Positions 7,251-48,580 of a stretch of DNA of 64,000 nucleotides are shown here, piece by piece; position 1 is the stretch's first letter, and every line of letters starts with the position of its first letter. The notes beneath the pieces were generated by a model. That model was not told the DNA's origin. It did no database searches and worked only from the letters and a program-made list of their open reading frames with translations. The stretch lies in assembly GCF_002854065.1 (NCBI RefSeq), contig NZ_CP024151.1. The stretch is one strand, 5' to 3'. The stretch is from Escherichia coli. Its GTDB lineage: Bacteria; Pseudomonadota; Gammaproteobacteria; Enterobacterales; Enterobacteriaceae. The translations under genes and the position numbers were made by a program.

Positions 7251-7779
7251 ATCTGGTCTGAACCAGATGGTTCCTCCATCAAAAGCGATGAGATGAAGAT
7301 CATTATCAAGAGTTTTGAGGGCTCTCCAAACACGAGTGTATGAACCTCCACTACAAACTGAAAGCTCTTTAACAGATAAGTTAACTTTGTTCGTATCAGG
7401 GATGTAGTGTGCGCACATTACTTGTACGAGGGAAACATAAAAACTAACCATCGACGCGCTGATTTTATTTTTACGTTTGCCATGCGCTATTGCAAGAAAA
7501 CCTCTGATGAAGATCAGATGCTTGAAGGAGTCAAAATGAGCCCTTTTCTGGAGAAGGCAGCAAAACGGGTGAGGATACTTGCTGGAATCAATGTGAAGAT
7601 CTGATTCAATCCCACCCGCTATTACTGAATGTGTTTCATGATTAGCCACACCATCCTGCACTTACAATGCACAGAAGGAGTGAGCACAGAAAGAAGTCTT
7701 GAACTTTTCCGGGCATATAACTATACTCCCCGCATAGCTGAATTGTTGGCTATGCGGTTTTATGGGGCCCCGGTAATCT

Positions 7780-7890
7780 TTCTAGTCGCCAAACTTGAAG
7801 AAGATTATCGGGGTTTTCGCTTTTCTGGCTCCTGTAAATCCACATCAGAACCAGTTCCCTGCCACCTTACGGCGTGGCCAGCCACAAAAT
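7780..7890 (+). ncRNA. copA: Putative CopA/CopT antisense copy-number control region
   Basis: Located in the repA leader just downstream of copB, opposite strand to repA; contains CGCCAA and GC-rich hairpin-capable sequence I associate with R1/R100 CopA/CopT. Exact ends and strand not verifiable without alignment. Confidence 0.35.
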
Positions 7891-8467: not shown

Positions 8468-8671
8468 CTTCCGTGCTTCGTAGGCCAGAGTTACCTGCAC
8501 CACTGTATTTCCTCTGTGAATATTCAGCTCACATAACCGTTCCCTGAATATCAGTGAAAAACACAACACCATGGCGCACACGGCGAGCAACCCGATAAGG
8601 GCATATTTCGTCATAAACTTTGACCTCTCTGCAAAGAAGAGGCTACAATCAGTAGTGTTAAGGTACTTCAT
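8468..8671 (-). CDS. srnB: Hok/Gef-family type I toxin homologue (SrnB-like)
   Basis: Translation MKYLNTTDCSLFFAERSKFMTKYALIGLLAVCAMVLCFSLIFRERLCELNIHRGNTVVQVTLAYEARK matches the SrnB sequence as I remember it; single TM helix plus conserved C-E-L motif. In this sequence the frame reads on to 8321 with no stop after ...EARK. Confidence 0.7.
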
Positions 8672-9619
8672 GCAGACCTCACGAGTTAATGGATTAACGA
8701 GTGGGGTCTTCGCATTTCTGGTACCTGCGTCTTGCCTGAACCAGAAAGGCTCAGACACCCGCCGCGATAATACCACATTCCCTGTTGCTGGCTATTACCC
8801 CCATTTGCCTGTTTTTGTTACAAAAACGCCGGGAGCGGGGGAAAACTTACTTTTTCCCGTTTCCGGGGGGGACAACTGAGCATTGCGAACGCGTCAGCTA
8901 CGATGTTCCGGTGATTGCTGATCAGCCCCTGTTGTATTCATAAACTAATTAACATTCATTCCGTCTGGTGCATAAATCTGCCCGTGAACATCTGCAGACA
9001 ATACCGACCATAAAAAAATAAATAATCCCAGTAGAATATATTTCCTCATATTATTATCCATAACAAATAAATGGCACCTGTACACCTGTATTTCAGGCAA
9101 TCCTGAATATTGCAGCGCACATTGAATAAGACGTTATTTCGTGACATTAATCACAAAATATAAAATCGCGACTTAATACGGAAAAAACTCTGTGCTACTC
9201 AGAACTGACTGGTCATACTGCCCGACCGGATATTAAAAAAGCAAATCTCATAAACTCCTTTCAGCCTTCTGACTCCTGGAGTAATGAAGGCTGCTTTTTC
9301 GTTACACCCTTCCCCGGCAGCGCCGGTAGCAGTGTTCAGCCCTTTTTCGGGCAAACTGCTGCCAGTCTGTCCGGGGCGCAACACAGGCAGCCCGTCGCCA
9401 TCCTTCTGCCGCTTCCATCCAGCGTCCACTGACCTCCAGAATAACGGCCCGGCTTCCGGCACGCTGCCAGCGCCAGACCTGACCGTTCCGTGAACTGTTT
9501 CTGAATCCATTCATCTTTATCACTCCTCTTTAACCCGTCAGTATTATGGTGTTAAATAATCTACTGAATTGGCTTCCTTTCGGGTACGGAAGTTTATTTC
9601 CTTTTAAGCCTTATTTCCC

Positions 9620-10262: not shown

Positions 10263-11009
10263 TCACAGCGCCAGAACGTCCAGCACAGCCAGATGACAGG
10301 CATAGAACGTCGGGAAAAAATCCCCGGGCCAGAAACGGGGTAATGATTTTCCTGCACACGACACCAGACCAACGGTCAGCACCGTCATCACAAGGCCGGC
10401 CACCGCCGCTGCATCACTGGTGGCAAGGTTAAGCGCCGGAATAACAGCCAGCAGGCAGGCGACCAGCGCCAGACGTTCCATTCTGTCTTCCGCCCGGTAC
10501 AGCCTGTGGCTGACTGCCAGCATCAGCAGCCCGGCAATGCCGTAACTGGTGCCGGAGAAAGGCAACCACATTGCCAGAAGCAACATGGTCTCTGCGGAAC
10601 GCCACCAGGTGCGCGTTTCACACCATGTCAGCACCTGTGCCGTAACTGCAAAGGCAAACAGGATATTCCCCTCATACCAGGGAAAGCCGGCCAGATAATA
10701 TGCGAACTGGGCAATCACCGCCCATCCCCACAGCCGGTTAATGGCCTCCTGCCGGATATGCGTATGACGGGACAGATTCAGCCCCCACACCAGGGCAAAC
10801 AGCGGAAAGGCCCCACGCCCGACCAGAAACATCCACGACTGGTCCAGATGCAGAATGCGGTTTGCATGGTCCAGAACCATCAGCACCAGTGCCACCGTTT
10901 TGATGATATCCCGCTGTCCGGGTGACCAGACCAGCAACGACTGCAACCAGGTATCGGTCCGGGCAGCCAGTGAATCATTACGTGTTGTGTTCGTGTTATC
11001 CGTTGTCAT
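10263..11009 (-). CDS. traX: TraX, F-pilin N-acetylase (polytopic membrane protein)
   Basis: 248 aa hydrophobic protein immediately downstream of traI; matches the TraX family. Confidence 0.88.
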   Translation of the reverse strand: MTTDNTNTTRNDSLAARTDTWLQSLLVWSPGQRDIIKTVALVLMVLDHANRILHLDQSWMFLVGRGAFPLFALVWGLNLSRHTHIRQEAINRLWGWAVIAQFAYYLAGFPWYEGNILFAFAVTAQVLTWCETRTWWRSAETMLLLAMWLPFSGTSYGIAGLLMLAVSHRLYRAEDRMERLALVACLLAVIPALNLATSDAAAVAGLVMTVLTVGLVSCAGKSLPRFWPGDFFPTFYACHLAVLDVLAL

Positions 11010-11028
11010 CAGCGTTTATCTTCCTGTA

Positions 11029-14000
11029 TCAGTCTCCGCCCAGGGTTTTCTCTTTCTGCAGGGCACGAACCATATCCCGCTCCATCTGCTGCAGTCGCTC
11101 CTGCAGCAGATTTTCCCGGGCAACATCCCGGACCGCTTCCCGCACCCGTTGTGATTCACGCAGCACACTCTCCGGCAGCGCGGCTTCCCGTTCAGATATG
11201 GCAGACCGGTCACGCTCCTGCCCGGCAATCTCCCTGACAGCCTGCTCTGTTTTGCCATCCGGCAGGTCAGGTTTGTTCTCTGCCATTTTACGGACAATTT
11301 CATCCGCACGGCGTTCCGTTTCACGGCGGATGGCCTCTTCAGCTTGCCGCTGTGCCAGTACCTCTGCCGTGACCGGTTCGCCATTTCCGGCTCCCGGCTG
11401 AACGCTGTTGTCCGGGATATCCCCCCACACGCGACCACCGGTGATGGTACCGGGATTCCACGGACGACCTTCACCGGCGATTCTTACCACCACACCGCTG
11501 TCAGGATTATCACGGGCAATCCGGACACCATCCTGCATATTATCAGCCAGCAGGCTCTCTCCGTTACGGCTGCCCTGCAGGGCCACGAACTGCGCATCCC
11601 CGCTGCCTTTCACCCGGCCTTCACCACTGAAGCCCCGCAGCCCGTTTCCGTCATCCGTGGTCAGCGGATTCAGCCAGATACCGGCGGACTTGCCGTTACG
11701 GTCAAAAGCCGGCAGTGCCACATACGGCTGCGGATATTTGCGCCCGGGTGCAATAAACCGTGCAGGATTGTCTCCCCCGGCAAGTCCCGCCTGACGGAGA
11801 ACGGCACGGCCGGCCGCCACGTCCCGCAGCTCCCGCGCCGTACTGAACAGCCGCTCTGCATTCATGACCTCCCGGTCCGATTTCGGCTCAAGCACATCGT
11901 GGGCAGTTCCTTTCTGTACGGCATTGTTAATGGCATCCGTCCAGCCCTGACGGTTATCGGTATACACCTGCACATGCTGCTTCATACGCGACAGGGCCAC
12001 GTAGGCTGACTCAAAGCCGGCCATCTGTTTCCGGCTGCCTTCCGTACCTTCAAGCGCGATGGCAAAGGTTTCACTTGCCCCCTGCGCACCGTGGGCGGTG
12101 ATGGCATAGGCCAGGTCAATATGTTGCTCTGCCCGCTCCTGACCGGGGCGAATCACCCGGGTCTGCTGTCCGTCCGACAGCGTGACACTGTCACCGGAAA
12201 CCGCTGTCACCGTCCAGACGCTGTTGGCCACATAACCGCGCTCCCGGTCACTCTTCGTGAAGCGCATCCGGTCACCGGTTCCCACCCGGATGGTGTCCGG
12301 GGTGTACAGTGTGACGCCTTCAGCCACCGCCTCCCGGGGCGAAATCAGCCGCGTGTTACCTTCAGCATCCTGCAGGGTTATCAGCCCGTCATCCCTGCTG
12401 ATACCGGCAATCCGGTGATACACATTATCCACCAGGGCAAGTGCGTCCCGATGTGTCTCCCAGGTGGAGAGACGACGCAGCTCCCCGTCGCGTATATTCG
12501 CTGTGTTCAGGACAGGCACCATGACCTGCTCTTTTCCCAGCTCACCGGCCTTTTCCCGTGCATCATGAATCATGCTGTTCAGCACGCGCCGGTCCTCATT
12601 CAGGTGCGTGACAATCAGCGTCTGCTCCCGTGCTTCCGGTGTTCTGCCGGTATAGTCGCGGACAATGGCTTCATACAGTGTCATGGGGACATCCGGGAAA
12701 GCCTCGCCTTTCAGCATCGCCTTCTGCTGCGCTTCTGCCAGTTTCGCTTCCTGGCTGTGACTGAACTCCATCACGGAGTGCTCCGGTGCCCATGCGCCCT
12801 CCAGACGTGGCACCTGAGACGGTTTCACACTCTCAAGCCCGGATAGTGCCCTTTCCACATCCCGGTTAATCAGGTTGTATACCGCCTCCCGCAGTTCCGG
12901 CGTCTGACGCACAATCTCCTTCATGATGGCCACATCGGCAGCACTGCGCGTCTGCTGGAGACGGAAAGGCTGACCGGGCGCGATGGCCTGCAGCTGGTCC
13001 GTGTCACCACTGGCCACGGCACGACCGCCACCGGCCGCAATCAGGGCGTATGCCCGTGCCATGTCGGTATTGCCCACCATTGAGCTCTCATCGAGCAGGA
13101 ACAGCGTGTTGCTGAAATCCGGCGTTTCTCCGCTGCGCTGCTGCAGCTGCGTGTCATGCAGAAAAGACGCCAATGTCTGCGCATCCACGCCGGCGCTGCG
13201 CATCTCCCCGACCGCACGGTGTGTGGGACCCAGCCCAACGACACGGGGACGCTCACTCTCCGGCAGCATGTTCACGGCTGACATCACCGCCCGGAACTGT
13301 GTGGTCTTACCCACACCGGCATAGCCCTGCACCACCGTGAAGCGGTCGGACGTTTCCAGTATCATGCGGGTGGCGGCGCGCTGTCCTGATGTCAGTTTCT
13401 CCATGAGTTCGCCAGGTACTCTCTCCATCAGCGGCGTGACCGCCTCCTTACCTTCGAGAATATGGCGAAGAATGCTCTTTTCTGCCTCATACGACGCACG
13501 GGAAACCAGCAGGCCTGTGCCATAGTCTTTTGCCACATCCACATACAGTAAATCACCCCGTTTTATCTGCGCATCGATTTCCCCTCCCAGTTCAGTAAAA
13601 CTGGTTCCTTCTGCAGCAAACGACTTCGCCTCTGTCAGCAGGTCCACCATGCTGAAGGCCAGGTTTTTACTTTCCAGCACAGGAAGGGCCAGATGAATGG
13701 CCTGCTGTGCCGGCGTGTGAAGCCCGGCTTTCTGCAGACTGATAGCGGTTTCCAGCAATGTCTCACCGGCACGCGCCTTTATCTGCTCAGAAACCACCGT
13801 AAAGGAGGGATGGCGGGCAAGTTTTTCCGCAGTACGGGTTTCATCCAGTGAGGAATACAGCCGGACATCACGACCGCTGCGGGCCAGACCGTTCAGGGTG
13901 GCGTTGTCCATTGCCATCTGTGTGACGGAGGCAAAAACCTTCGCACTGTCGCTGACGGAATGCCCGGGCGTTTCCACCCAGCCGCTCTCCAGCTTCAGTG

Positions 14001-16299
14001 CCGTGAACGGTGAATCAGCCACAGGCAGGGAGGCCGGTTCAGCCCGTCCCGGCACAACAACCGTCATCGCGTCCTCGCTGACGGATGCCACCTGCAGGAG
14101 GTCACCGCCGGAGACGCGGAGTCCGGGAATTTTCCCGGTCACCCTCAGACGCTCGCCGTCTGCCACCGGCATTTTTTCCGGCCGGAACAGCGACCAGCTG
14201 CTGTCCAGGGAGGAAATACGCACCACCTGCGTTTCACCCTGCGCATCCCGCAGGGTCAGGCTGTGACTCTGCGCCGTCACCCGGTCGATAACATAGCGGT
14301 CATGACTGCGTGTCTCCGGGTTCCACTGCTCCATCACCATCCCCGGACGGTACATATCCCGCAGATAACGGCTCCGGCTGTCCAGCCAGACCGGTGACAG
14401 TGCCGTCATGGTTACCTCCGGGTGTCCGAGCACGCCCTGTGTTTTCAGCTCACTGCGAATGGCCTGTGTCAGTATGGCCTGTTCCCGTACCCCGCTGACC
14501 TGTGCCACGCTCTCTTCTCCGGCTTTCACGCTGGCCGCAAAATCTCCTGCCAGCCGGGCATAGCGGACATTACGGTCCGGTTCACTGATGATGGTGGCCG
14601 GCCGCTGTTCTCCCCCCTGCCAGCGATATGTGTTCACCCCGGCATCTTTCATGGCCATCAGTGCACTGCCTGTACCGGTTCGCTGCCCGCTGTCGGTTAT
14701 CAGGACCTGTACGTTATGACGTGCAGCACCGTCCAGCAGGGTTAACGTCTCTTTCAGGGAGAGTTTTTCGCCCTGGTCAACGATAACAGTATTGCCCGGC
14801 GTGAAGGCCATGCCCTCCTGCAGCTGACGACGTCCGGTTATCAGCTCACCGGACAGCCGTTCATCCTGCTTCAGGTTCATCTGCGAGCGACGGTCAGCGG
14901 CGATAATCTGCACCTCCCGCCCCTGCTCCCGGGCCATCATGACCAGCTCCGCCACCCGCTCACGCTGCCCGGCTGCACCGCCCTGCCCGGACACAATAGC
15001 CAGCGACGGGCGATCCTGTGCCAGAACACTGACCGCATCGCTGTAACCGGCCGTCCGGGGGACACTTTTCTCCGGATGTACGGTCACCCGGTTCTGTTTC
15101 ATGATGTCACGACTGAGTGCCCGGACTGACAGCTCATCGAGCACATGAATCCCGGACGTGAACAGCCCCTTCTCACGATCGAGGGGGATAAGCTGCTCAC
15201 GGCTGATGGCCTCATCGATACCGGCGCGTGCCCGTTCAATCACACCATTTTCCGGCGGCAGTATGCCGACCGTTCTGGCCAGCACGTCCGTGTACGTAAA
15301 CTGCACTTTGCGTTCACTTAATCCGGCAATCGCCTGTGTCACCGCCTGCTGCACATCCGGCCCGTCCGGTGAAGCAGGCCCGGGCGCCTGCGTGCGGGTC
15401 TCCGCCCGTTGATCCGCCGCGTCACGATACGCCCGGATGTCGAACCCGGTTTCCCTCAGCGTCTGCATCCATTCAGCCATTCTGACTTCAGGATCGACGT
15501 GCTGTTTGGATTTTCGCGTATCCAGTGCCGCCACATCCCGGGATTTCAGCGAGGCATCTTCCCCGACGGCCTCCCGGATAGTCTGTGAGCGTCCGGAAAA
15601 GGCCTCCACCGGTACGCCCGGCATCTCCCACATACCGTGCTTACCCACCACTTCGGTTTCATAGCCCAGCGCCTCAACCTGCTCTTTCAGTTTTTCCCGG
15701 TAGAGCCTGCCAAAGGCAATCTGATTAGCGTACACATTCTCAATGAACCCCGTTTTCCCCACTTTGTCACTGCTCAGTGTCTTCCACTCACCGTTATGCT
15801 GCGTAACATTAGCCACCACCGCATGCGTGTGTAACTGTGGTTCCTGATCGCGACTGGTGTCGTGGTTAAACAGTGCCATCACCAGATTACCGGTCAGTAC
15901 CGTTTCTGACTGTCCGTCCGTCATCACCCGTGTGGAGGCCAGCGCCTCCACCTGACGAACAGCAAAGTCCACGGCCTGGTTATGTGCATCAATCAGGCGC
16001 TTATCGCCACCTAACATGGCCATCATGGAGACACTTTTGGGGGCGGAGAAGGTCAGGTCGTAGCCGGGACGATGCTTATTACTGCCATCCTGCATGCGGC
16101 TTAGATCCGCTCCGTCCGGCAGCCTTCCCTCCAGAAGACGGGTAAAAACATCCTTATCGACACTGCCCTGCAGTCCCAGCTGTTCAGCCCCCCTGCCGGC
16201 CCAGCGTTCTCCCATGCTGCCCAGTACATAGTAATTATCCTTGTCGGTATAATAGTTACCGGCACTTCCGGCCGATCTGACCTGCGCGATACTCATCAT
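11029..16299 (-). CDS. traI: TraI relaxase/helicase (MOBF)
   Basis: 1756 aa; N-terminal relaxase region ([24 protein letters not shown]...) and Walker A GYAGVGKT in the helicase domain; size and position classic for F-like TraI. Confidence 0.95.
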   Translation of the reverse strand: MMSIAQVRSAGSAGNYYTDKDNYYVLGSMGERWAGRGAEQLGLQGSVDKDVFTRLLEGRLPDGADLSRMQDGSNKHRPGYDLTFSAPKSVSMMAMLGGDKRLIDAHNQAVDFAVRQVEALASTRVMTDGQSETVLTGNLVMALFNHDTSRDQEPQLHTHAVVANVTQHNGEWKTLSSDKVGKTGFIENVYANQIAFGRLYREKLKEQVEALGYETEVVGKHGMWEMPGVPVEAFSGRSQTIREAVGEDASLKSRDVAALDTRKSKQHVDPEVRMAEWMQTLRETGFDIRAYRDAADQRAETRTQAPGPASPDGPDVQQAVTQAIAGLSERKVQFTYTDVLARTVGILPPENGVIERARAGIDEAISREQLIPLDREKGLFTSGIHVLDELSVRALSRDIMKQNRVTVHPEKSVPRTAGYSDAVSVLAQDRPSLAIVSGQGGAAGQRERVAELVMMAREQGREVQIIAADRRSQMNLKQDERLSGELITGRRQLQEGMAFTPGNTVIVDQGEKLSLKETLTLLDGAARHNVQVLITDSGQRTGTGSALMAMKDAGVNTYRWQGGEQRPATIISEPDRNVRYARLAGDFAASVKAGEESVAQVSGVREQAILTQAIRSELKTQGVLGHPEVTMTALSPVWLDSRSRYLRDMYRPGMVMEQWNPETRSHDRYVIDRVTAQSHSLTLRDAQGETQVVRISSLDSSWSLFRPEKMPVADGERLRVTGKIPGLRVSGGDLLQVASVSEDAMTVVVPGRAEPASLPVADSPFTALKLESGWVETPGHSVSDSAKVFASVTQMAMDNATLNGLARSGRDVRLYSSLDETRTAEKLARHPSFTVVSEQIKARAGETLLETAISLQKAGLHTPAQQAIHLALPVLESKNLAFSMVDLLTEAKSFAAEGTSFTELGGEIDAQIKRGDLLYVDVAKDYGTGLLVSRASYEAEKSILRHILEGKEAVTPLMERVPGELMEKLTSGQRAATRMILETSDRFTVVQGYAGVGKTTQFRAVMSAVNMLPESERPRVVGLGPTHRAVGEMRSAGVDAQTLASFLHDTQLQQRSGETPDFSNTLFLLDESSMVGNTDMARAYALIAAGGGRAVASGDTDQLQAIAPGQPFRLQQTRSAADVAIMKEIVRQTPELREAVYNLINRDVERALSGLESVKPSQVPRLEGAWAPEHSVMEFSHSQEAKLAEAQQKAMLKGEAFPDVPMTLYEAIVRDYTGRTPEAREQTLIVTHLNEDRRVLNSMIHDAREKAGELGKEQVMVPVLNTANIRDGELRRLSTWETHRDALALVDNVYHRIAGISRDDGLITLQDAEGNTRLISPREAVAEGVTLYTPDTIRVGTGDRMRFTKSDRERGYVANSVWTVTAVSGDSVTLSDGQQTRVIRPGQERAEQHIDLAYAITAHGAQGASETFAIALEGTEGSRKQMAGFESAYVALSRMKQHVQVYTDNRQGWTDAINNAVQKGTAHDVLEPKSDREVMNAERLFSTARELRDVAAGRAVLRQAGLAGGDNPARFIAPGRKYPQPYVALPAFDRNGKSAGIWLNPLTTDDGNGLRGFSGEGRVKGSGDAQFVALQGSRNGESLLADNMQDGVRIARDNPDSGVVVRIAGEGRPWNPGTITGGRVWGDIPDNSVQPGAGNGEPVTAEVLAQRQAEEAIRRETERRADEIVRKMAENKPDLPDGKTEQAVREIAGQERDRSAISEREAALPESVLRESQRVREAVRDVARENLLQERLQQMERDMVRALQKEKTLGGD

Positions 16300-18461
16300 C
16301 AGAAATCATCTCCCGGCTCAACATCCTCCCCACGCTCCCGGTGCACATTAATGTTCACCTCTTCACGACGCTGCATCTGCTGCTGGATGTCCGGATGATT
16401 TTCCTGTTGCCATGCCTCATAAGCGGCCATATCCACCACTTCACCGGATTCACTGATCCCGGGTGGCAGTTGCTGTTCCATCTCTTCTTCCGGTTTCATT
16501 TTCAGCTCCTGCTCGATCCCCCCTGCCGGAACATTCACACCTGAATCTGACTTCTTATCGTTTATGGCAGGAGACACCGGCTGTTGCGGCTGTTGCGGCT
16601 GTTCAGCCTGAGTCACGTCTTCTCCGGAAACAACTTCCGGCACATCCGGTTCGAAGAGGCTGGCCATCTGACGACCTTCTGCTTCCCTTGCGGCAAGTAC
16701 GGCACTCAGACGGTTCTCCATTTCCGGGTTGATGTCACGCGGAATAAACTCAGGGGCAACCTTCGGACGTGCCTGATATTTCAGTGAGAGTTTTACTGCC
16801 GGATACGGTCCGGGCAGGGTGACATAACAAGTCAGATCCGGCAGAGACTGAATGTCGGAATAACTGACCAGCGTCTGGCGCTCCATATCCTTACCGGTCG
16901 ATACCCCGTCACGTACCGGATCAGCACCGTAGGAATACTGCTCGCTGGCTTTCAGGTGCTCTTTCTCACCAATCTCACCGGCAGCGAACTCTGCAATCTT
17001 ATGGCTGGGAGAACGGAAAAAGGCACGAGTGTTCATGACGTCAAACAGCGTGGCAGCCGCTTTCTCACCGTAGATATCTTCCAGCTGGGCATAGGACTGG
17101 ATACCAAACACATAACAGCCACCGAACTTACGGGCTTCCGGCAGGATCTCCACCAGGTCCGGCAGTTTGTGTAACGTGGGTAGCTCATCACAGAAAAACC
17201 ACACACGACGGTTACGGTTTTCTCCCATTGCCAGCAGACCACGAATGGCAATGGACAGCCACATGGAGATCACCGGCTTCAGGGAGGCATGGGTGTCGGC
17301 ATTCGACGAGATAAACAGCCAGCCGTTTTTCTGATCTTCCCGGACACCCCGCATCCAGTCACGGATGGTAAAAGACTCACCGTTATGCTCAATCCCCTGC
17401 AGGTAACGGATGGCTTTCACGTAGTTGGTCAGCACAGCACGGATGGAAATCGCCGTTTTCTCAATTTTCTCTTCCACCAGGTTGGCCGCCGGTGAATTAC
17501 GCAGGAAGGTACGCAGTTTTTCGATTTTGATGGAAAGCAGTGTGTCCACCAGTTTGCTGTAGCTGCGGTTGGGGTCATTACGCATCAGGTACGCCGCTTC
17601 CGCAAAAATGGTACGTCCTGAACCCTGCCAGAACGGGTCCTCTTTTGTGCCCATCGGGATCAGAGTATTTGCGGTATTATCAAAATCCGGCTGTGTCAGG
17701 CACTCCTTCCACAAATCCCAGGCGGCACAACGGGCATCCAGCGGATTCAGGATTTTATCGATGGAGGGATCATAGTAACTTTTAACAAATTCCCCTGAAC
17801 GGTCATAAATCACCACCATATCTCCACGCTGACGGGCGTAGTTGGCCAGACGACGGATAACTTCCGACTTACCGGCCCCGACCGTGCCGTGCAGACAGAA
17901 GTTCTGGATTTCGGAATCCCGGATAATCGGCAGGTCGCCAATCCGTATATCGGAGTCCTTGCCGTCTTTTTTCAGCATCCGGGCAACGTCTTTCGGGTTC
18001 TCCGTCAGCTGACGACCACCTGTGACTTCATTTTCGCTCTGTTGTTTACCCTGACGCCCCAGAATCCAGGAGACAACAAAGAAGGTAATCAGGCAAATAA
18101 CCAGTGCCACAACTGTAGCCAGAACGAATGCGGACCATAGCTGCTCTCCGCACCAGATCATATATTTATCATGCAGTACCTGAGCAGCGTTCATCCGGAA
18201 GGTTTTGCCGTAATACTGGATCTCATAGACCGGCTGGGACTTGATTAAATCCCGCATGCCTTCCAGCGTGGTACACCACCAGTAAATACAGCCGTTCACA
18301 AACGTCTGCCAGCTTATTTTTACCCATAAAACCAGACCAACGAGTATCCAGAAAAAAATAAACAGGCAGTAAAGCATGATATTGGCGATCTGGCTGAACA
18401 TGCGGATACGCATGGACGCAATCTGACCGCCCTGGGTCATATCCTTTGCGTTAAAACTCAT
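16299..18461 (-). CDS. traD: TraD type IV coupling protein
   Basis: 720 aa; N-terminal TM segments, Walker [12 protein letters not shown]; C-terminal Q/P-rich repeat (QPQQPQQP) and acidic tail typical of F-like TraD. Confidence 0.95.
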
Positions 18462-18712
18462 GATGATATTCCGAAGAAAAAAGTCAGTCGGACTGATTAT
18501 TAATGATGAAAAGATTAATAACCGTTAAATTCCGGCTTCGCCGGCAACACTTCACGGTCGCACAAAGAATTTGCACAACCGCTCAGTGTTTTCATATTTA
18601 TTTCGGAAACGCCGGGGAGAAATAAAATTTATTTTATTTCTTTCCGGGGTTGGACAACGAGCAAAGCGAGGCGTCAGTCAGGAGGCCGGTCAGACCAGCC
18701 TCCGGAAGATAA

Positions 18713-19444
18713 TCAGAGAATATTTGCGATTGATTTGGCCAGCTGGTCTTCGAGAACAGGCTTCGCCTCTTCAAATTTCAGGTTAACCTTGTTCGCATTT
18801 GAGACCACACGGGTCTGGTATTTATGCTGGTTACCTGTTTCAGTACTGGTCTGAATTTTCGCACCTGATGTGCCCTGACGCAGGGCGGCAACATTATCCG
18901 TTGTCACCGTTGCCTTAGTACGCTCTGCAATCTGCACATCCGTGATCATGGTATAGTTCACATCTTCCACCATCGCATCTGCAGCCATACCCACCAGACC
19001 GGCAGCAAGGCCCACACCGAGTGTGGCACCGGCAGAACTGGAATTATATCCGGTGATACCGGCACCTAACGCTGCACCAACTGCTGCGCCCTCATAACCA
19101 CGGTTCAGCCATCCCTGAGACTCCCGCAGATCCATCTTATCGGCCTTCAGCACATTCGCCTGAATCCAGTAGTAGGCTTTATCCGGAGAAGTCACCACCT
19201 GATATCCTTTTGCTTTCACAGCATCAGCAATTTTGCCCTGCAGCCCACTCATGTCTTTATCAGACGTGTTTTTGATCTGCAGAAATACCGTGCGTTCGCT
19301 GGCGGGTTCAAGCCAGATGGTCTCACTCATCTGAGTCTTCACCTCAAGGTTACGCTTCTTGATTGCTGTGCTCATCGCACCACACCCTGAAAGGGCCAGA
19401 GTGGAACTGACCAGTGCAACCATCATCAATTTTTTTGTTTTCAT
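18713..19444 (-). CDS. traT: TraT surface-exclusion outer-membrane lipoprotein
   Basis: 243 aa; lipobox LALSGC; sequence closely matches F/R100 TraT. Confidence 0.93.
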
Positions 19445-19457
19445 CCAAAATATCCTT

Positions 19458-19967
19458 TTAACTAACAGACTCTTTTTTGAACAGTCCTATTACTGAGGCT
19501 ATAGCTGAGAGATTATAACGATTTATATCTATGGTATACACCAAGAAAAATAATATGAATGTAATCATTAGTGCAAAAACATATAAGATAGAATGCATAA
19601 ACGAAACCATAGAAAAAACAATCAAAAACAACAAAATATATGTCTTACTCTTAGAATACATAAAATTTATTATTTTTGAATCCTTTCTGAAACTATCAGG
19701 AATCGCAAGGTATAACATCATTCCATTTGTAATAGCCACAAAAAGCAGGAACCCCATCATTCCACTAGCACATATATCAAAGCCAACATCCCTGACATCA
19801 CTTTTAACCGATACTAAACGCAGAAAAGTTGGCCATAATAAAACCCATAAAAACACATAAGTTCCCGGCTTTATGACTTGTAATAATGATGGGATATTAA
19901 CACCCTCTACAGAGAGTACCTCCTTTAGTTTTTGCATCTCCATTCTTATATCATAGTGAGTGATCAT
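19458..19967 (-). CDS. traS: TraS entry-exclusion inner-membrane protein
   Basis: 169 aa, very hydrophobic, AT-rich gene located between traG and traT (conserved position of the variable traS). Confidence 0.75.
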
Positions 19968-22789
19968 AATGGCCCCTTCAATCGTTCTTTCTTATCATCC
20001 ACCATCTGTTTTAACGCATCTTCAGACGGTGTTGGCATTAATTTCTGTCGTTTATTTTCTTCATTATATCTGTTGTTTTGTTGAATTTCTTCCTGTTTGT
20101 GATTATTTTTTAACTCTGAATATTGTCTGTCTACAATATTTTCTTCGCCATGAATACTATTCTGAGTATCTCCGATATTCCCTTTATATTCTGTGACCAT
20201 ATTATCAACCTGATGTTTTACATCATTACGGATATTACTGTCCTGCGTTCTTTGATCAATAATGGCCTGATGCCCCTGATGGTCAGCAATAATATCCTGG
20301 CTGCCACCACCCGAAGGTACGCTCTCCATTCCTTTACCAATATCCCCACGGGATTCACGCCAGGCATTATCAACACCAGGCTGCACCTGTTCCTGAACAA
20401 AAGACCATGCCATCGCCCGACGGCGTTCTGCAATCTCCGGTGAACTGGTGTTTGTCAGAATAGCTTCGGCATCCTGCGGTGCGTGTTTCATCACATACTG
20501 TGCAAACTGTTGCGACAAATCTTCGCTCATCTGCCCACTCATGCTTTCAGTACGGGATGCCATTTCAGCATATTCATGGCTGCGGGTCATATTCGTCGTG
20601 TACTGGTCGTAACTCTGTTTCGCTGAGTTCAGGGCTGCAGACAACTGGTCCACGCGGGAATCGGCATTATTGTCAGTATGGCTGCCGGATTCACTGACTT
20701 TGCGACTGGTAAAGTAATCGCTGGCCTCTTTAAAGTCCTTACTGGCTTTAGCATCGATATCATGGCGAGCATCATGGGTAGCCCTGCTGCCACTACTTGC
20801 TGAATGTGAGTCATCATCCGTTGCATCCAGGCTCCCCTTAAATCCACCTCTGATGCCTACCCCACCACCAACACCAAGAATTTTAGGTTTAACCCCCCAT
20901 TCAGCATGAGCATCAGCATACATTCCACCAGATAGCCTGGTACTTGTTGATGCCAGTTCCTGAGTCGCCTGCTCATTACTGATATTATGCGCCTTCGCAT
21001 AGCTTTCCACTGCACTGCGCATACGGCTGGCCATCATGGAGTCCTGAGCACTCATCGTGCTGTCAGCACCACCGGTGACAGAATCACTGCTCCCCCGGTT
21101 AGAACCAAACTGACTGAGCGTGTTCCAGGCACTGGCAATACTGCTGCTGAACCCATGCAGGGCACTTTCTGCTCTGTTCGATGCTTCCCGGGCCATTTCC
21201 TGTTGTGCCGCCGCAATCTGACGCGTTGCATTGATGCCGACCGGTAACCGGGACATCGCTCCGCTTGCATCCATCACCATATTACCGTCACGGGTCTGTG
21301 TGGCGGTTGCGCCACTGCCGGTCTGGTACATCATCTGACCAAACGACGTGGTGCTGTTGGTGCTCCAGCTGAAGCCGTTAACATTCTCCGTCTGCATGTT
21401 GCCGTAGGAGTAATTACCGTCAACCACACTGCCTGCTGCACTGGCGGTCGGGCTGATAGCAGAGGAAGCGAAATGGCTGTACACACTGGAAAATCCTGCC
21501 CCGAGCCCCCTGACCATCATCCAGGATAATGGCGGGATCATCATGGAAAGATACCCGGCAGTGGAAGCCAGATCGGAGTATTTCAGCTGTATCTGTGAAA
21601 TTTCCGAGAGCACCACCGGTGCACCATTCTGCTTTGCATAAAATGTCATGGCGCTGTTCAGAATGGCGTACAACATTGGCCATGACTGCAACCACATCAG
21701 GGCAAACACATAGCCTTTCAGGACGGACAGCGTCAGTTTGTTGAAGACAGCCGCCAGTACCAGGAGCGGGAAAATACCGATGGCGATCCCCGTCAGGATG
21801 GTCTGCGTCATGGGCAGTGTCCGCATCGCCACATGACCGATGGAGACATGTGCCAGACGTTGCTTCTCCATCGATGATGTGGTGGCCAGATTCACCAGGC
21901 TGGCCGAATCACCATTACGTGCGGCATAACTGGTGATCCCCTCCTTCAGCGCATTGATGGTGACATTCTGGCGGATGATCTGGCTGGCTGATTTACTTGA
22001 GCCATAGAAGTAACTGTAACTGTCGCCAATCAGCGTACTGAACAACAGGTTCGGATCAGGGCGTCCACCAAATAGCTGCTGGGCATAATAATGCCATGTT
22101 TTTCCGCCACTCTGTGTGTCCAGATTCAGCTTGTCTTTCAGCGAAACCGACGCGTCCTTACAGGTCACGAAATTATTATTGCTGTCATAAACGCCCCGCA
22201 GCGGACTGGGGCGGGAAAAAATCAGCGTGTAAGGATCAGCGGAGGCCATCAGTTCCTCCAGCGTGTATTTGTGGTTCAGGTAAATATCCCCCATCACGCA
22301 GTTCTGCACATAATCCTGGAAAAGATTGGCGATTTCCGGATTACGGGACAAAAAGTCGGTGCTTTTTGATACCAGTTCTGCGCCAAACAGCATCCCCGTT
22401 TTGCTGTAGGTGACACTGTCCGGTTGCGTGAAGATCATCTCGTAACTGGCCACCATTGCATGCCCGATACGGGTCGTCAGTGAAAGTGGCATCGCCAGTC
22501 CGACCGGCACATTATCCACCCGGTGAACTTTGACCAGGTCACTGTTATCAATAATCTGCACCGATGTGCGGACATTAACCAGCAGGCTGATAAGCACAAA
22601 CACGGCCACCCAGCCCAGCAAATCCATCACGTTGTGCCGCTGTACCCACATTACGGCCACCGCGAGAACAGACAATGTGAGCGCAATTTTTTCAATGGAA
22701 TCCCACGTCCGGGTCCCCATAAAGGCGGCAATGGCATTCAGGTTATTCCGCAACCACTCACCACCGGCAATCACATAAACTTCATTCAC
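19964..22789 (-). CDS. traG: TraG (mating-pair stabilisation / entry-exclusion partner; VirB6-like N-terminal domain)
   Basis: 941 aa; multi-TM N-terminus and large periplasmic C-terminal domain; position after traH. Confidence 0.92.
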   Translation of the reverse strand: MNEVYVIAGGEWLRNNLNAIAAFMGTRTWDSIEKIALTLSVLAVAVMWVQRHNVMDLLGWVAVFVLISLLVNVRTSVQIIDNSDLVKVHRVDNVPVGLAMPLSLTTRIGHAMVASYEMIFTQPDSVTYSKTGMLFGAELVSKSTDFLSRNPEIANLFQDYVQNCVMGDIYLNHKYTLEELMASADPYTLIFSRPSPLRGVYDSNNNFVTCKDASVSLKDKLNLDTQSGGKTWHYYAQQLFGGRPDPNLLFSTLIGDSYSYFYGSSKSASQIIRQNVTINALKEGITSYAARNGDSASLVNLATTSSMEKQRLAHVSIGHVAMRTLPMTQTILTGIAIGIFPLLVLAAVFNKLTLSVLKGYVFALMWLQSWPMLYAILNSAMTFYAKQNGAPVVLSEISQIQLKYSDLASTAGYLSMMIPPLSWMMVRGLGAGFSSVYSHFASSAISPTASAAGSVVDGNYSYGNMQTENVNGFSWSTNSTTSFGQMMYQTGSGATATQTRDGNMVMDASGAMSRLPVGINATRQIAAAQQEMAREASNRAESALHGFSSSIASAWNTLSQFGSNRGSSDSVTGGADSTMSAQDSMMASRMRSAVESYAKAHNISNEQATQELASTSTRLSGGMYADAHAEWGVKPKILGVGGGVGIRGGFKGSLDATDDDSHSASSGSRATHDARHDIDAKASKDFKEASDYFTSRKVSESGSHTDNNADSRVDQLSAALNSAKQSYDQYTTNMTRSHEYAEMASRTESMSGQMSEDLSQQFAQYVMKHAPQDAEAILTNTSSPEIAERRRAMAWSFVQEQVQPGVDNAWRESRGDIGKGMESVPSGGGSQDIIADHQGHQAIIDQRTQDSNIRNDVKHQVDNMVTEYKGNIGDTQNSIHGEENIVDRQYSELKNNHKQEEIQQNNRYNEENKRQKLMPTPSEDALKQMVDDKKERLKGPL

Positions 22790-24162
22790 AGCGTGCTCCC
22801 TCCGAAGTGATAGTTGTTCTGGTAACGACTGAGCATGCGGGCGGAAAGCTGCTGACGCATGTAGCTCATCTGACGATCGACAACCAGCAGCGCATCCTGC
22901 TGTACCTGCACCTGTGACTGAAACGCCGCAATCTGCCGGGTGGCATCATTCATGTTGTCGTTAATATGTTCGATAACTGCTTCGTCATAATTTCCTGTGG
23001 CCACCATCGCCCGGGCCTGCTGTATCAGCTCCTGAATGTACTGCAGCAGGATGTCGTAACCGATATAGTCCGTCAGCTGGTAAATCATACTGTTGGAAAC
23101 ACCGAGCATTTGCGGGTCAACCAGGTATTTGAAGACGGGGATGGTGGTACTGGAAATAAAGCCTTTTTCCTTGTCATCCAGAGGCGTGTCACTGACCGCC
23201 TTGTTCTGAATGCTGGCCAGAAGTTTAGTAATCTGAGACTTCAGTGCATTATCCCGGCTGATGGTCACCGGTGTGTCTGCCACCACTTTCAGGCATTTAT
23301 CAGAATCGTTGCAGTGATAAATTTTTGCTGTGCCGCCTTCCATCATGGCCCGGATAATTGAGCGGTCAGTGGTTCTGGCTGATAGCGGTGTGATTTCGCC
23401 GTTGGGACCAAACACCAGTGAGCCGGTCAGCGTCATCACAAATTCTTTCAGCTCTTTGTTGCCATCAAACATTCTGTTTTTGGAAAGCGCATTCCACATG
23501 ATGTTGATGTTTTTGGTCACCCGCTCCTTATCCTTGTCGCTGGCTTTATCCCTGACGCTGTCAGATTTCCCGCCAACGGTACATCCCTGCCGGGAAGCCG
23601 CCCAGTCAGCAAAAATATTGCTCTCACCGGCAATGTCCTGACAGACTTTCTGCTGGGACACCTGCGTCCGGGGGAAAAGCCCGCCGATAATCCCCTGTGC
23701 AGCCTGGCAGGAACTGAGGTTCATACTGTTAATGTCGCTTGCCATTTTCTGCAGGAAGTCTTTTGCGGTTTTGATTTCCGGCACCGTTGTCTGCAGGGCA
23801 AGGTCAAAAAAGTAACCGGCAGCATTGCTCATAATCTGCTTAACAAAACGCTGCAGCTGCTCGCCATTAATAAAACTGAACGAACCGAGGTAGGCGTCGA
23901 TGCCGCCACATCCGGCATTGATATCCGGCAGCGTCATGGAAATCAGCTGAACATTTTTGACCTGAGTACGGGCATACAGGGAGCCACCGTAAGCATAACC
24001 GGCGGCCTGCCCCTGCCAGACGCCCGGCTGTGTGGTATTGGAGGCGAAGCCCAGCTTGTTAAAGAACTGATTCATGTCGCTGTTCACATCCGCTGACGCT
24101 GCGGGTGTGACCGTCAGTAAAGCAGCACAAAGAACCAGAAGAGGTTTAATGCGTGGCATCAT
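22786..24162 (-). CDS. traH: TraH pilus assembly protein
   Basis: 458 aa with signal peptide MMPRIKPLLVLCAALLTVTPAASA; F-like TraH family by sequence and synteny. Confidence 0.92.
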   Translation of the reverse strand: MMPRIKPLLVLCAALLTVTPAASADVNSDMNQFFNKLGFASNTTQPGVWQGQAAGYAYGGSLYARTQVKNVQLISMTLPDINAGCGGIDAYLGSFSFINGEQLQRFVKQIMSNAAGYFFDLALQTTVPEIKTAKDFLQKMASDINSMNLSSCQAAQGIIGGLFPRTQVSQQKVCQDIAGESNIFADWAASRQGCTVGGKSDSVRDKASDKDKERVTKNINIMWNALSKNRMFDGNKELKEFVMTLTGSLVFGPNGEITPLSARTTDRSIIRAMMEGGTAKIYHCNDSDKCLKVVADTPVTISRDNALKSQITKLLASIQNKAVSDTPLDDKEKGFISSTTIPVFKYLVDPQMLGVSNSMIYQLTDYIGYDILLQYIQELIQQARAMVATGNYDEAVIEHINDNMNDATRQIAAFQSQVQVQQDALLVVDRQMSYMRQQLSARMLSRYQNNYHFGGSTL

Positions 24163-31225: not shown

Positions 31226-33849
31226 GCAACACTCCTGTATTTCTCATGCTCTTCAAGCCAGGCTTCCAGCGAAGCCATCTCCGGCCCTGATTTCTTCCAC
31301 GCCAGCTGCCACACCGCCTCATGAATACTCAGCCCCTCTTTACGCTTCTGCTGTACAAACTCAAAGTCCGGGCCGTCAGAGCTGTACATGGCACGGCTTA
31401 ACGGGTCCACAAACAGACGGTGCCAGGAGGAATGGTTTTCCACCTGCAGCAGGAAGGAACTGAACCACTGGTCTTTGGCCGCACCAAACTTGCCAATCAT
31501 GTCGCGCTGCAGTGGCAGGAACTGGTCCGGATACAGCTGGTTGTATTTCGCGAACTCCTTCGCACTCTGTTTGAGGATAATTTTGTAGGAGGAGTTACCC
31601 CATGCCGCACGGGCAGCACTGGATGCCTTGTCAGAGTCAAAGTCGACGATGTTCTGTGTGATGGTGATATAGGCACCGGTATGACGGCGGGCGGTACGGT
31701 AACCTTTCTCAATAAACTCACCGACCTTGTGATTTTTGAAGTCCAGCAGACGCCAGCCTTCATCAATAACGTTCAGTTTTTTGAGATTACGCGGCGTGCG
31801 GTACATCCTGTTCTCGATGTAGATAATCAGGGAGAACATCACCGCAACCAGCAGTGACGGACGGTCTTCCAGTCCGCCCAGCTCCAGCACCACCATTTTT
31901 GCGTCATCCCGCAGGGACGGCTCATCAGAGTTAAAATACTGGCCGTAAGTGCCGTTGGCAGTGTACTGGTCAAGCAGCACAATCATTTCGTCCAGACGGC
32001 TGCGGATAGTCGGTGACTCGGCATACTGCTCGCTGTCACTGGCGTTTTTCAGGAAATCCACCACGTCATCAATACGTGCCCTGTTCTCTTTGGTCCGCCA
32101 TGATGCCCTGACGGCCTGCAGCAGCAGACCTTCATGCACTTCATCCAGGTTACCGTTGGGGCTGGCCATCACCGACAGCTGGTCGCGGACACGCTCCGCT
32201 GACTGGTCAATATCGGTGATGTTCGCAAACGGGTTAAAGCGCAGGGTTTCACCGTCCAGATATACGCCCCCCATGTTCTCACACAGGGACTTGTAGCCAT
32301 CCCCCATGTCGAACACCACGGCAAAGCCCCCGGAGTCCAGCACGCTGCGGATAAGTGGCTGTATCAGCCCGGTTTTACCGGCCCCGGAGGTGCCACAGAC
32401 CGCCATGTTGTAGTTGGTGTTATTCATCCCCCGGAAGAAAATATCGATAAACGCCAGCTGGTTACGGTAGGTGGGTGCCAGCAGACCTGCCGGTGTCAGG
32501 GGGTTATCCGCCACTAACGGCATCAGGTTGGCCACATTAAAGCTCTCTGCGCGCTGTACCACTCCGGCCTCTTTCAGCTGTTTAAACAACCCTTTCCCGG
32601 CCATAAAGGGCAGACAGGTCAGGAAATTGCGCATGTGGTTAAAGCGCGGTGAAATCAGCTCAAAACCGTTTTTACGGAAGCTGTTCAGGATGTCCTGCTC
32701 CACTTCCAGCGCCGTTTCATTATTGTCCTTGCAGAAGGCTGTGATGTTGAGGAAGTAGGACACCACGGAGGACTGACCGGAGCCCAGCCGCTGACGCAGT
32801 TCCCCCCACTCCTTCGCCTCTTTCTCCACGGACGGAAACCATTTGGCATAGGAGGTCTTCGACTTTTTCTCCAGGTCCATGTACTTCAGGTTGGCTTCGC
32901 TGTGGGTTTTCACCTGGTCTTCCACCACCAGAGTCAGCGTCAGGATGAACGGACAGGAGATGGACAGTTCCGGGTTCAGCAGGTTGCTGTAGTTGTCAGC
33001 CATGTTCCACAGGAAGGCGATTTCCGGGTTACGGGCCAGATGGAAATTCAGGATGCGGGCCGTGCTGTTCCTGCCGTTCTCACGCAGGCCCAGCGTCAGG
33101 TAATCAGCCCGGACTTTCAGATCAAAACTGTCCTCCACACACTGATAATTCAGATCAGAATACGGGTCCAGCTGACGTCTTTTCGGGTACAGGGAGTCCG
33201 GGTTATGGTTAATCATCTCCCCGACAATATCGATAAAGGCCTGTGCATCCACCGTCTGTGTGGTGATACTGGCCCCCTGTAACGACGCCCGGATGATTTT
33301 CACCAGGTTTTCCATTTCCAGAATGTCGGCCCGGCTTTTTTTCTTCGAAGGAGAACAGTACGAGATAAACACCCGGTAATGGCGCAGGGTCAGGGGCAGA
33401 TTCATCCCCTCCGGCAGCGGAAACTGTGTCGCTGCCGCTTTCATATAATAGGCCCGGGTAATGGCGTTAAACCGTTCAGCCTGTTCACCTGACCAGGAGA
33501 ACTCACGCAGCCCGTATTCAATCCTGTCACCAACCAGCTGACTGGACATCAGATGGATACACAACGGAATACCGCGCGGCAGTTTGGTGCGCAGCATGTG
33601 ATCGAGGGCCTCCACAATGGACTCATTCGCCCCATTGATGGGGATGGCTTCCAGCATAAAGCCCATCGTGGTGTCATTCATGAACAGACCGGATTCCTGG
33701 TTGTAATCACGGTACGGCAGCAGACGGCTGAACTGCGGGAAGCTCATTTCGCCCAGAACTTCATTGGCCTTTGCGGATTCGTCAGGCAGTTTCAGTGCTG
33801 TGACGAGGGAGTTAACCGCCTGAGTGACGGCCTCAAGTGGGTTATTCAC
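31222..33849 (-). CDS. traC: TraC (VirB4-family ATPase)
   Basis: 875 aa; Walker A GTSGAGKT; F-like TraC. Confidence 0.95.
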   Translation of the reverse strand: MNNPLEAVTQAVNSLVTALKLPDESAKANEVLGEMSFPQFSRLLPYRDYNQESGLFMNDTTMGFMLEAIPINGANESIVEALDHMLRTKLPRGIPLCIHLMSSQLVGDRIEYGLREFSWSGEQAERFNAITRAYYMKAAATQFPLPEGMNLPLTLRHYRVFISYCSPSKKKSRADILEMENLVKIIRASLQGASITTQTVDAQAFIDIVGEMINHNPDSLYPKRRQLDPYSDLNYQCVEDSFDLKVRADYLTLGLRENGRNSTARILNFHLARNPEIAFLWNMADNYSNLLNPELSISCPFILTLTLVVEDQVKTHSEANLKYMDLEKKSKTSYAKWFPSVEKEAKEWGELRQRLGSGQSSVVSYFLNITAFCKDNNETALEVEQDILNSFRKNGFELISPRFNHMRNFLTCLPFMAGKGLFKQLKEAGVVQRAESFNVANLMPLVADNPLTPAGLLAPTYRNQLAFIDIFFRGMNNTNYNMAVCGTSGAGKTGLIQPLIRSVLDSGGFAVVFDMGDGYKSLCENMGGVYLDGETLRFNPFANITDIDQSAERVRDQLSVMASPNGNLDEVHEGLLLQAVRASWRTKENRARIDDVVDFLKNASDSEQYAESPTIRSRLDEMIVLLDQYTANGTYGQYFNSDEPSLRDDAKMVVLELGGLEDRPSLLVAVMFSLIIYIENRMYRTPRNLKKLNVIDEGWRLLDFKNHKVGEFIEKGYRTARRHTGAYITITQNIVDFDSDKASSAARAAWGNSSYKIILKQSAKEFAKYNQLYPDQFLPLQRDMIGKFGAAKDQWFSSFLLQVENHSSWHRLFVDPLSRAMYSSDGPDFEFVQQKRKEGLSIHEAVWQLAWKKSGPEMASLEAWLEEHEKYRSVA

Positions 33850-34007
33850 ATGAATTCCTTAGTTGAAAATAAAGCGAGAAATGCGGTAGCCATGAAGGGA
33901 ATACCTGTAATTAACGCGCCATTTCCCGGCGCATATACAAAGATTTCTGTTTTCTGAATATCCACTCATGTTCATCCGGAATTAAATCACTATGTTCTGC
34001 GACTGAC

Positions 34008-34229
34008 TTATGCATAATGTTTTCTCTGTCTTTCCTGATACGCCTGACATTCAACGCACAACGTCACACCGGGAAATATTTTCCGCCGGGCTTCCGGAAT
34101 AGGATTTCCGCATGCTTCACAGAGATAAACAGGAATACCATGAGCATTTATTTTCTGGCGTATCCGGTTTATTCCTGTCATGGTCAGTTGTTCTGTCACT
34201 GAATATGCTTCATCGGCTTCATCACTCAC
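34008..34229 (-). CDS. traR: TraR (DksA/TraR-family zinc-finger protein)
   Basis: 73 aa with C-x2-C-x17-C-x2-C (CEACGNPIPEARRKIFPGVTLCVECQ). Confidence 0.88.
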   Translation of the reverse strand: MSDEADEAYSVTEQLTMTGINRIRQKINAHGIPVYLCEACGNPIPEARRKIFPGVTLCVECQAYQERQRKHYA

Positions 34230-34363
34230 GGAATATTCCTCCCGACATGTTCTGACACGCTACCGCCCATCCCTTTTCACGCACAGGGCACTCGTTTTAC
34301 AGGCAGATTTTGAATACAGAAAGCCCGCCGGCATTGCCGGCTGATATACAACTTCAGGGCCAG

Positions 34364-34879
34364 TTAATTAATACGTGGTTTTCCCCACGCAGACGGTTTA
34401 ATAACAAAAAACACGCTGGATGGCTGATGATAAACATCCTGGTTATCAATATAAGGCGCTATCCATAATGCTGCCGTCTGCTCACCCGTTCTTAGCGGAC
34501 GAGGAGGTGTTACCGGCGTAACTGAACTGACCGGAACAACCGTTTTCACTTCCCGGGCAGCGGTAAACAGCGGGCGAGGTGCCAGCAGTTTCTGCTCCGG
34601 ATGTGCTGTCACCGCAGGTCTGCTGCCGGACGGAGTGGTCGCGGTGACGGTCTGCACCGGCATTGTCCGGAAGTTCCCTTCAGCCAGGCGCGGCAGTGAT
34701 GCCGCAACCGGCTTTGCTTCTGAGGACTGCTCCAGTTTTTTGGCCTTCTCATTGGCCTGCTCCATCGTCATACAGGTATCTGATGTGGTGGCGTTACACT
34801 CAAATTCCGTATTAGTTCCGGCACAGCCAGAAAGTAATAACGTCCCCAGCAGAGGAATAAATAAAGAAATCTTTTTCAT
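34364..34879 (-). CDS. traV: TraV outer-membrane lipoprotein (secretin-like core component)
   Basis: 171 aa; lipobox LLLSGC; Pro/Thr-rich middle region. Confidence 0.9.
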   Translation of the reverse strand: MKKISLFIPLLGTLLLSGCAGTNTEFECNATTSDTCMTMEQANEKAKKLEQSSEAKPVAASLPRLAEGNFRTMPVQTVTATTPSGSRPAVTAHPEQKLLAPRPLFTAAREVKTVVPVSSVTPVTPPRPLRTGEQTAALWIAPYIDNQDVYHQPSSVFFVIKPSAWGKPRIN

Positions 34880-39181: not shown

Positions 39182-39214
39182 ATGATTCCTCTGTTTAATA
39201 TTGATAGATAAAAA

Positions 39215-39442
39215 CTAAAGTTCTTTAAATGTTGACTCGCTCTCTTCGGTCACCTCCCTGAATATTTCTTCGTTATAGAAATCAGGAAATCGTTTCAGAT
39301 GATCTCTGAGACGGATCTGGACTTCTATCGTTTTACTTCTTCCACTACGATCTTTGGCCTTAATAAGTCGGTTATTTGTATCTTCATCGAGATACACCGA
39401 GACTGTTCTGCTTATACCGCCTCTCGCGTTACGCCTCCTCAC
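39215..39442 (-). CDS. traY: TraY (RHH oriT-binding relaxosome accessory protein)
   Basis: 75 aa basic protein between traA and traJ; R100-type short TraY. Confidence 0.85.
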   Translation of the reverse strand: MRRRNARGGISRTVSVYLDEDTNNRLIKAKDRSGRSKTIEVQIRLRDHLKRFPDFYNEEIFREVTEESESTFKEL

Positions 39443-39536
39443 TCAATTCACCTCTGTTTCCCGACTAATAAAATTATGATTGCACAGAAACCGACGAAAA
39501 AAAAACACGCCAAAATTGGCGTGCCTTATTTAACAT

Positions 39537-40413: not shown

Positions 40414-40797
40414 TTATTCATCATCATTTTTTGGAAAAAACCGGTCCATCTCAACAGACACTTTCTCTCTGATATCGTCAACCATACTGGCATATTCAAA
40501 CTTCGGGTTTCCGGAGACATGAGGACTGAGAGACTCAATACCTAAAATCTTTGCCACCGTTGACTGTGTTTTTACAACACATTCAAGAAGAAGTTTATTA
40601 AACTCTGTCTGGTTAAACGCAGACTCTTTACGCTCCATCTGTGCATCATATACGCGAAGCCCCAATTCAAGAAGCATTGAAGCAGTTCCTGAAAGGCTTA
40701 TATCTTTATCTCTTGCTCCCTCCTGACGACGCTTTTCAACAATCATGTTAATTTTTTCATGAACCTCATTACTGATATACAGATTTACTCTGGCCAT
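40414..40797 (-). CDS. traM: TraM relaxosome accessory protein
   Basis: 127 aa, MARVNLYISNEVHEKINMIVEKRRQEGARDKDISLSGTASMLLELGLRVY...; first gene distal to oriT. Confidence 0.92.
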   Translation of the reverse strand: MARVNLYISNEVHEKINMIVEKRRQEGARDKDISLSGTASMLLELGLRVYDAQMERKESAFNQTEFNKLLLECVVKTQSTVAKILGIESLSPHVSGNPKFEYASMVDDIREKVSVEMDRFFPKNDDE

Positions 40798-40829
40798 AAG
40801 ACAGTACCTTTTATATTCTGAAACAAGTG

Positions 40830-47832: not shown

Positions 47833-48580
<748 letters not shown>

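Follow-up and report, generated by a model that had tools for sequence, protein, structure and literature searches.

The coupling protein TraD of F-like plasmids contains a run of Q-Q-P units, which lies between the nucleotide-binding domain and the TraM interaction domain and differs in copy number among relatives. Lang et al. (2011, Mol Microbiol 82:1071, Fig. 8; PMC3245843) described this QQP motif as QPQQP in F and as a stretch of 23 residues in R1. The same 9-bp unit has been encountered in comparisons of IncF plasmids, in which near-identical tra regions differed mainly in repeat number. In one study 61 versus 11 CAACAGCCA repeats were found (PMC6402710), and in another the number of CAACAGCCG repeats in traD was variable (PMC8065532). 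Both treat the repeat as a descriptive difference, without functional analysis.

TrwB of plasmid R388 and other VirD4-type coupling proteins have a transmembrane/ATPase body that is homologous to TraD (aa 161-573 against PDB 1e9r), but they lack the C-terminal extension of about 150 aa, and hence both the QQP tract and the TraM-binding tail. A repeat located in a linker region is also known from E. coli tolA. This repeat is likewise an in-frame intragenic tandem repeat with a copy number that varies between strains, whereas protein and unit are different and a stress-tolerance phenotype of the tolA repeat variants was tested experimentally (PMC3477136).

The present analysis concerns the tract encoded in a stretch of 64,000 nucleotides of Escherichia coli DNA, hereafter the window. 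It agrees with the QQP region of Lang et al. in protein, position, QQP unit and length heterogeneity, and nothing essential differs. The window encodes QPQQPQQP, which is QP(QQP)n with n = 2 and one unit longer than F, and uses the CCG form of the 9-bp unit. The variable QQP repeat in TraD is real, already known and biologically ordinary, and the functional consequence of its copy number is probably small. We regard it as very likely that the tract is an in-frame 9-bp microsatellite in traD which is driven by slippage and codes for a near-neutral flexible spacer in a disordered linker, and that it is not a specificity determinant. The features on which this rests are the following, by position in the window:

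16299..18461, minus strand: traD, F-type type IV coupling protein, 720 aa (ORF; NCBIfam and Pfam matches; annotation in NZ_CP080082.1)
16779..17948, minus strand: nucleotide-binding / all-alpha domain of TraD, aa 172-561 (Pfam TrwB_AAD_bind, E = 4e-117; homology to the TrwB structure)
16302..16742, minus strand: C-terminal extension of TraD, aa 574-720, absent in TrwB-type coupling proteins (TrwB match ends at aa 573, Pfam domain at aa 561)
16473..16649, minus strand: hypervariable low-complexity linker, aa 605-663, holding the QQP tract (AlphaFold2 pLDDT; alignment of 22 TraD C-termini)
16578..16603, minus strand: 9-bp tandem repeat encoding QP(QQP)2 (Tandem Repeats Finder, sequence, unit parsing, Markov chance test)
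16302..16415, minus strand: distal conserved module and acidic tail, last 38 aa, the published TraM-binding region (invariant in 13 TraDs and conserved across the family; role in TraM binding from the literature)
16302-16325, minus strand: last 8 aa of TraD
11029..16299, minus strand: traI, relaxase/helicase, directly downstream of traD (ORF and annotation)
40414..40797, minus strand: traM, 127 aa, relaxosome protein, binds the TraD tail by its tetramerization domain (ORF; aligns with the annotated TraM of three plasmids)

Judged by its sequence, the ORF at 16299-18461 is an F-type TraD. The translation matches the NCBIfam model PRK13700 with 1653.5 bits (cut-off 1221) over residues 1-720, and TIGR02759 with 834 bits (cut-off 521). 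The Pfam domains TraD_N (aa 32-128), TrwB_AAD_bind (aa 172-561) and TraG-D_C were found. A Walker A motif, GTVGAGKS, is present, and 33 homologues show no change at its residues G192, G197, K198 and S199. The protein thus combines an N-terminal membrane domain with a TrwB-like nucleotide-binding domain, and its C-terminal extension closes with an acidic tail having a Gly and a terminal aromatic residue, the tail features listed as defining in PMC7555446. The gene order is traT - traD - traI in a complete F-like tra operon, as seen from the ORFs and from the annotation of the identical region in NZ_CP080082.1, and the start codon of traI overlaps the stop codon of traD. Furthermore, the 12 kb around traD are 100% identical to NZ_CP080082.1, CP101797.1 and NZ_CP116170.1, in which traD is annotated at the same coordinates. 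An annotated traM occupies the equivalent place in NZ_CP080082.1. An earlier, sequence-only reading of the window had named the gene traD, and the matches to curated models and the Pfam domains confirm this.

Two plus-strand ORFs across the tract (16463-16732, 89 aa; 16584-16787, 67 aa) were rejected as mechanical antisense ORFs within a strongly supported gene. A scan of the whole window against Rfam at gathering thresholds gave no match at 16560-16620, the nearest being AS-traI at 13374-13450.

Tandem Repeats Finder reported one array at the locus, a perfect 9-bp tandem repeat at 16578-16603 (period 9, 2.9 copies, 100% matches, consensus CGGCTGTTG). On the coding (minus) strand the array reads CAGCCG followed by two copies of CAACAGCCG. 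It is translated as QPQQPQQP, or QP(QQP)2, corresponding to TraD aa 621-628 with codons at 16578-16601. Both the peptide and its placement in the C-terminal extension of TraD had been read correctly from the letters, and the DNA quoted in that reading, GGCTGTTGCGGCTGTTGCGGCTGTTC, is found at 16579-16604. The array is the sole perfect period-9 stretch of at least 20 bp in the whole 64-kb window. In 200 first-order Markov simulations of the window the longest perfect period-9 stretch was 21 bp (mean 16.8), as compared to the 26 bp observed. The array is beyond chance.

A search of PLSDB with 602 bp from the 3' end of traD matched 4,100 plasmids. From these, 56 full-length matches were taken at even steps along the ranking, and 12 sequences were read, giving 13 tracts together with the window. 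In 55 of the 56 sampled matches the span departs from 602 bp by a whole number of 9-bp units (-2 to +20). The 12 sequences read have n = 1, 1, 3, 4, 4, 5, 5, 9, 11, 12, 17 and 23. The remaining length difference among the 13 tracts is a single 3-aa indel upstream, which separates two flank haplotypes and leaves n uncertain by one unit where only the span is known. Units within each array are identical in DNA. CAACAGCCG (CCG) is the sole unit of one haplotype and CAACAGCCA (CCA) that of the other, and this holds up to n = 23. The claim that repeat number varies among F-like plasmids therefore stands, on these 13 TraDs (n = 1-23), on the 9-bp steps in the larger sample and on the three published descriptions cited above. 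The comparison of TraD C-termini that had been proposed as a check shows that repeat number is not fixed among relatives.

The number of units also differs between plasmids that are otherwise the same. This is exemplified by pMyNCGM160 and pMyNCGM433_1, which align over 35.6 kb with 0 mismatches and one gap, of 9 bp and located in the tract, so that n = 14 and 13, respectively. Plasmids 99.8-100% identical to the window across 12 kb have n = 2, 3, 5 and 8, of which n = 5 was read and the others were inferred from the span. Another 27 plasmids with near-identical scores span about 7-14 units, as estimated from the span and anchored on two read sequences. Unit turnover, as judged from these alignments, is fast relative to point substitution.

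Since some repeat counts in public assemblies are possibly assembly errors, it could be argued that the variation is largely an artefact and that the tract of the window is a collapsed copy. Many TraD entries marked as partial stop exactly at ...GEDVTQA, directly before the QQP tract, and one cluster of such entries has 4,849 members. This indicates that short-read contigs often break there, and repeat counts from draft assemblies are accordingly to be distrusted. However, exact multiples of 9 bp were obtained from complete, mostly circularised plasmid records from many laboratories. Sequencing reads are all far longer than the 26-bp array of the window, whose n = 2 allele is shared by five independent plasmid records. 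In addition, the tracts of F (QPQQP) and R1 (23 residues) were determined by Sanger sequencing (PMC3245843). We find an artefact hardly credible as the main source of the variation.

The extension in which the tract lies has a layered organisation. An alignment of 22 TraD C-termini is conserved to about aa 605, continues as an unalignable low-complexity stretch that includes the QQP tract and varies in length and composition, and ends in a conserved distal module with the consensus GG.EQEL...LPPGI.E.GEVVDM.AYEAW...EPGDDF (part omitted). The distal module begins at about aa 647 and the nucleotide-binding domain stops at about aa 573, with the QQP tract between the two. In Klebsiella-type TraDs (about 70% identity) the tract region is replaced by a longer P/A/S/T-rich stretch. 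A PDB search returned TrwB (1e9r) as the sole structural homologue, matching TraD aa 161-573, and no solved structure for the C-terminal extension was found among matches of at least 20 residues. PDB entry 3D8A holds an 8-residue TraD peptide. Residues 605-663 have pLDDT below 50 (about 30) and no secondary structure in an AlphaFold2 model based on 33 homologues, in which short helices appear at aa 678-699; the model is mediocre overall (mean pLDDT 61.5) and low pLDDT is an indirect sign of disorder. The prediction suggests that the linker is probably disordered, and the C-terminal extension of TraD has been described as unstructured (PMC3245843; PMC10939261).

The sequence-only reading had placed the tract in the tail that contacts TraM, and had proposed that repeat number could tune the specificity of the coupling between relaxosome and coupling protein. 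The first of these claims does not hold. In F, it is the last 8 residues of TraD that bind the tetramerization domain of TraM, and swapping them switches specificity between F and pED208 (Wong 2011, PMC3159463). In R1, TraM binding requires the last 38 residues of TraD, which also suffice for it, according to the passage of PMC7555446 that cites Beranek 2004. A more recent study attributed a 10^4-5-fold stimulation to the last 15 aa of TraD, but only a 10^1-1.5-fold stimulation to the remainder of the C-terminal domain, in which the QQP tract is located (Kishida 2024, PMC10939261). The tract ends at aa 628 of 720, so that 92 residues separate it from the C-terminus and 54 from the 38-aa module, which lies downstream. 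It shares the extension with the TraM contact but is not the contact.

The second claim, that repeat number tunes the specificity or efficiency of TraM-TraD recognition and that lineages hold different optimal lengths, can be argued from the position of the tract, which has the ATPase body on one side and the TraM-binding module on the other. The length of the tract could govern the reach or the avidity of the tails, following the avidity model of Wong 2011 (PMC3159463), and sequences of the C-terminal domain other than the last 15 aa have a measurable share in the recruitment of both cognate and non-cognate substrates (PMC10939261). Against this, specificity maps to the last 8-15 aa, and the C-terminal tail is identical in 13 of 13 TraDs with n from 1 to 23. 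The near-identical plasmids described above differ in n, including the pair that is one unit apart, and QQP occurs together with several types of tail. Pure arrays and stepwise lengths furthermore resemble mutational drift. Each of four plasmids, with n = 1, 2, 5 and 23, has a TraM allele of its own, which would be in line with tuning, although four are far too few for an association and the alleles differ mostly in the N-terminal DNA-binding domain (58-84% identity) and not in the TraD-binding domain (86-99%). Tuning of recognition is in our view improbable; the proposal is unsupported rather than refuted by these comparisons, and repeat number may have a modest influence on efficiency or reach. 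A literature search for tests of repeat-number variants returned descriptive mentions only. Lang et al. (2011) stated that the question of repeat number was 'under investigation' (PMC3245843), and a follow-up from the same group is silent on it (PMC3338209).

High unit turnover is also what would be expected of a contingency-type hypermutable locus under diversifying selection, for instance by F-pilus RNA phages that require TraD, such as R17. Variants would then alter phage entry or transfer proficiency. In support of this speculation, Lang et al. proposed a phage-driven diversification of F-like coupling proteins, with the QQP region as a major difference between F and R1 (PMC3245843). One sampled plasmid, pAVS0543-A (NZ_CP124411.1), has a 4-bp insertion (ACAG) in the third QQP unit, at about 560-680 of the retrieved locus, which frameshifts traD and removes the distal TraM-binding module; its PLSDB record has no traD CDS. 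This frameshift is either a real pseudogene born within the repeat or a sequencing error. In any case it is a lone event and not a change of unit number. In phase-variable repeats a unit change shifts the reading frame or the promoter spacing, whereas slippage of a 9-bp unit cannot switch the gene on or off, and 55 of the 56 sampled alleles are in-frame multiples. A contingency locus is thus very unlikely.

The reading that we favour, a slippage-driven microsatellite encoding a near-neutral spacer, would work as follows. The in-frame array (CAACAGCCG)n encodes QP(QQP)n in a low-complexity and probably disordered linker, which would connect the ATPase body (to about aa 573) with the distal module and the acidic tail that docks onto TraM. 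Whole units would be gained and lost by replication slippage or unequal recombination, and slippage of whole units is suggested because the arrays are perfectly homogeneous. As the unit comprises three codons, such changes stay in frame and leave the protein intact. With the frame always kept, the protein would tolerate these changes, and copy number would drift quickly among otherwise identical plasmids. The tract region is not conserved across the family and is P/A/S/T-rich in Klebsiella-type TraDs, and we therefore read it as a flexible proline-rich spacer. Most likely, this proline-stiffened but flexible spacer gives the six tails of the TraD hexamer enough reach for TraM tetramers at oriT. 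Changes in its length would probably be neutral or weakly modulatory, in keeping with the small effect of the C-terminal domain outside the last 15 aa (PMC10939261), and specificity would not be set by length.

Two observations speak against strict neutrality. A QQP tract is found at the same position in TraDs that are merely 75-87% identical and have different tails (EPGGYI, EPGDNI, EPEPGDDF), which hints at some selection for a Q/P-rich segment. Furthermore, F and R1 have been noted to differ in phage R17 dependence, and variation in TraD has been suggested as a cause (Lang 2011, PMC3245843).

A more far-reaching speculation sees in the QQP spacer a rapidly evolving 'rheostat' whose length would set the reach of the six TraD tails. 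Efficient self-transfer would thereby be traded against promiscuous mobilisation of other plasmids, or against being susceptible to RNA phages that depend on TraD, such as R17. We consider this a long shot. If true, F-like plasmids could move along this trade-off by slippage within epidemiological time scales. These plasmids are among the main vehicles of antibiotic resistance, with TraD as the gatekeeper of what is transferred, and a repeat whose length altered the rates of transfer or mobilisation would be a fast-evolving modifier of the spread of resistance. On the practical side, the tract can be used as a hypervariable marker to separate near-identical IncF plasmids, and it is a known trouble spot, which is broken or miscounted in short-read assemblies.

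Comparison with related plasmids gave some further information on the window. NZ_CP080082.1 is 100% identical to it over the 12 kb compared (11000-23000), and between about 9648 and 33849 the ORFs have the same coordinates in both. The two are nevertheless different plasmids, as the ORFs upstream of about 9300 differ (repA, TEM-1 and Tn3 in NZ_CP080082.1), and a 7-bp shift in coordinates occurs between traC and traV (33849-34364). NZ_CP062813.1 has a mosaic tra operon (62185-63938, compared with 39200-40800 of the window). It is 99.8% identical to the window across traI-traD-traG but differs in traM (86.7% aa identity), in traJ and in a long F-type traY (402 bp versus 228 bp in the window), and the regulatory/relaxosome module has hence been replaced independently of traD.

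Several known RNA families were identified in the window with Rfam. The antisense RNAs AS-traI, AS-traG, AS-pc02 and AS-pc01, first described on pHK01, match at 13374-13450, 21985-22070, 9222-9405 and 51722-51824, respectively. FinP with the traJ 5' UTR is located at 40217-40326, CopA at 7734-7822 and two sok antitoxin RNAs at 8602-8760 and 44323-44499.

Other tandem repeats are present outside traD. The strongest in the window (TRF score 102) is a perfect hexamer microsatellite of 51 bp, (CAGTAG)8.5 at 49247-49297, which is located in the leading region between the minus-strand ORFs 48128-48619 and 49473-50036; small mechanical ORFs on the minus strand would read it as poly-Leu or (Thr-Ala)n. 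At 40985-41013 there is a perfect tandem repeat of 11 bp, (AGGGTCGCCAT)2.6, in the intergenic region upstream of traM and before a divergent transglycosylase gene, and the oriT region is expected near this position. A perfect repeat of (TGAACAACGCCG)2.8 is found at 53161-53194. Finally, a 14-bp unit is repeated 2.6 times at 61600-61636, and (ACTTATGAAATCAC)3.2 with 93% matches is located at 62646-62690; these two arrays, near ORFs 60516-61487 and 61644-62360, could be iteron-like.
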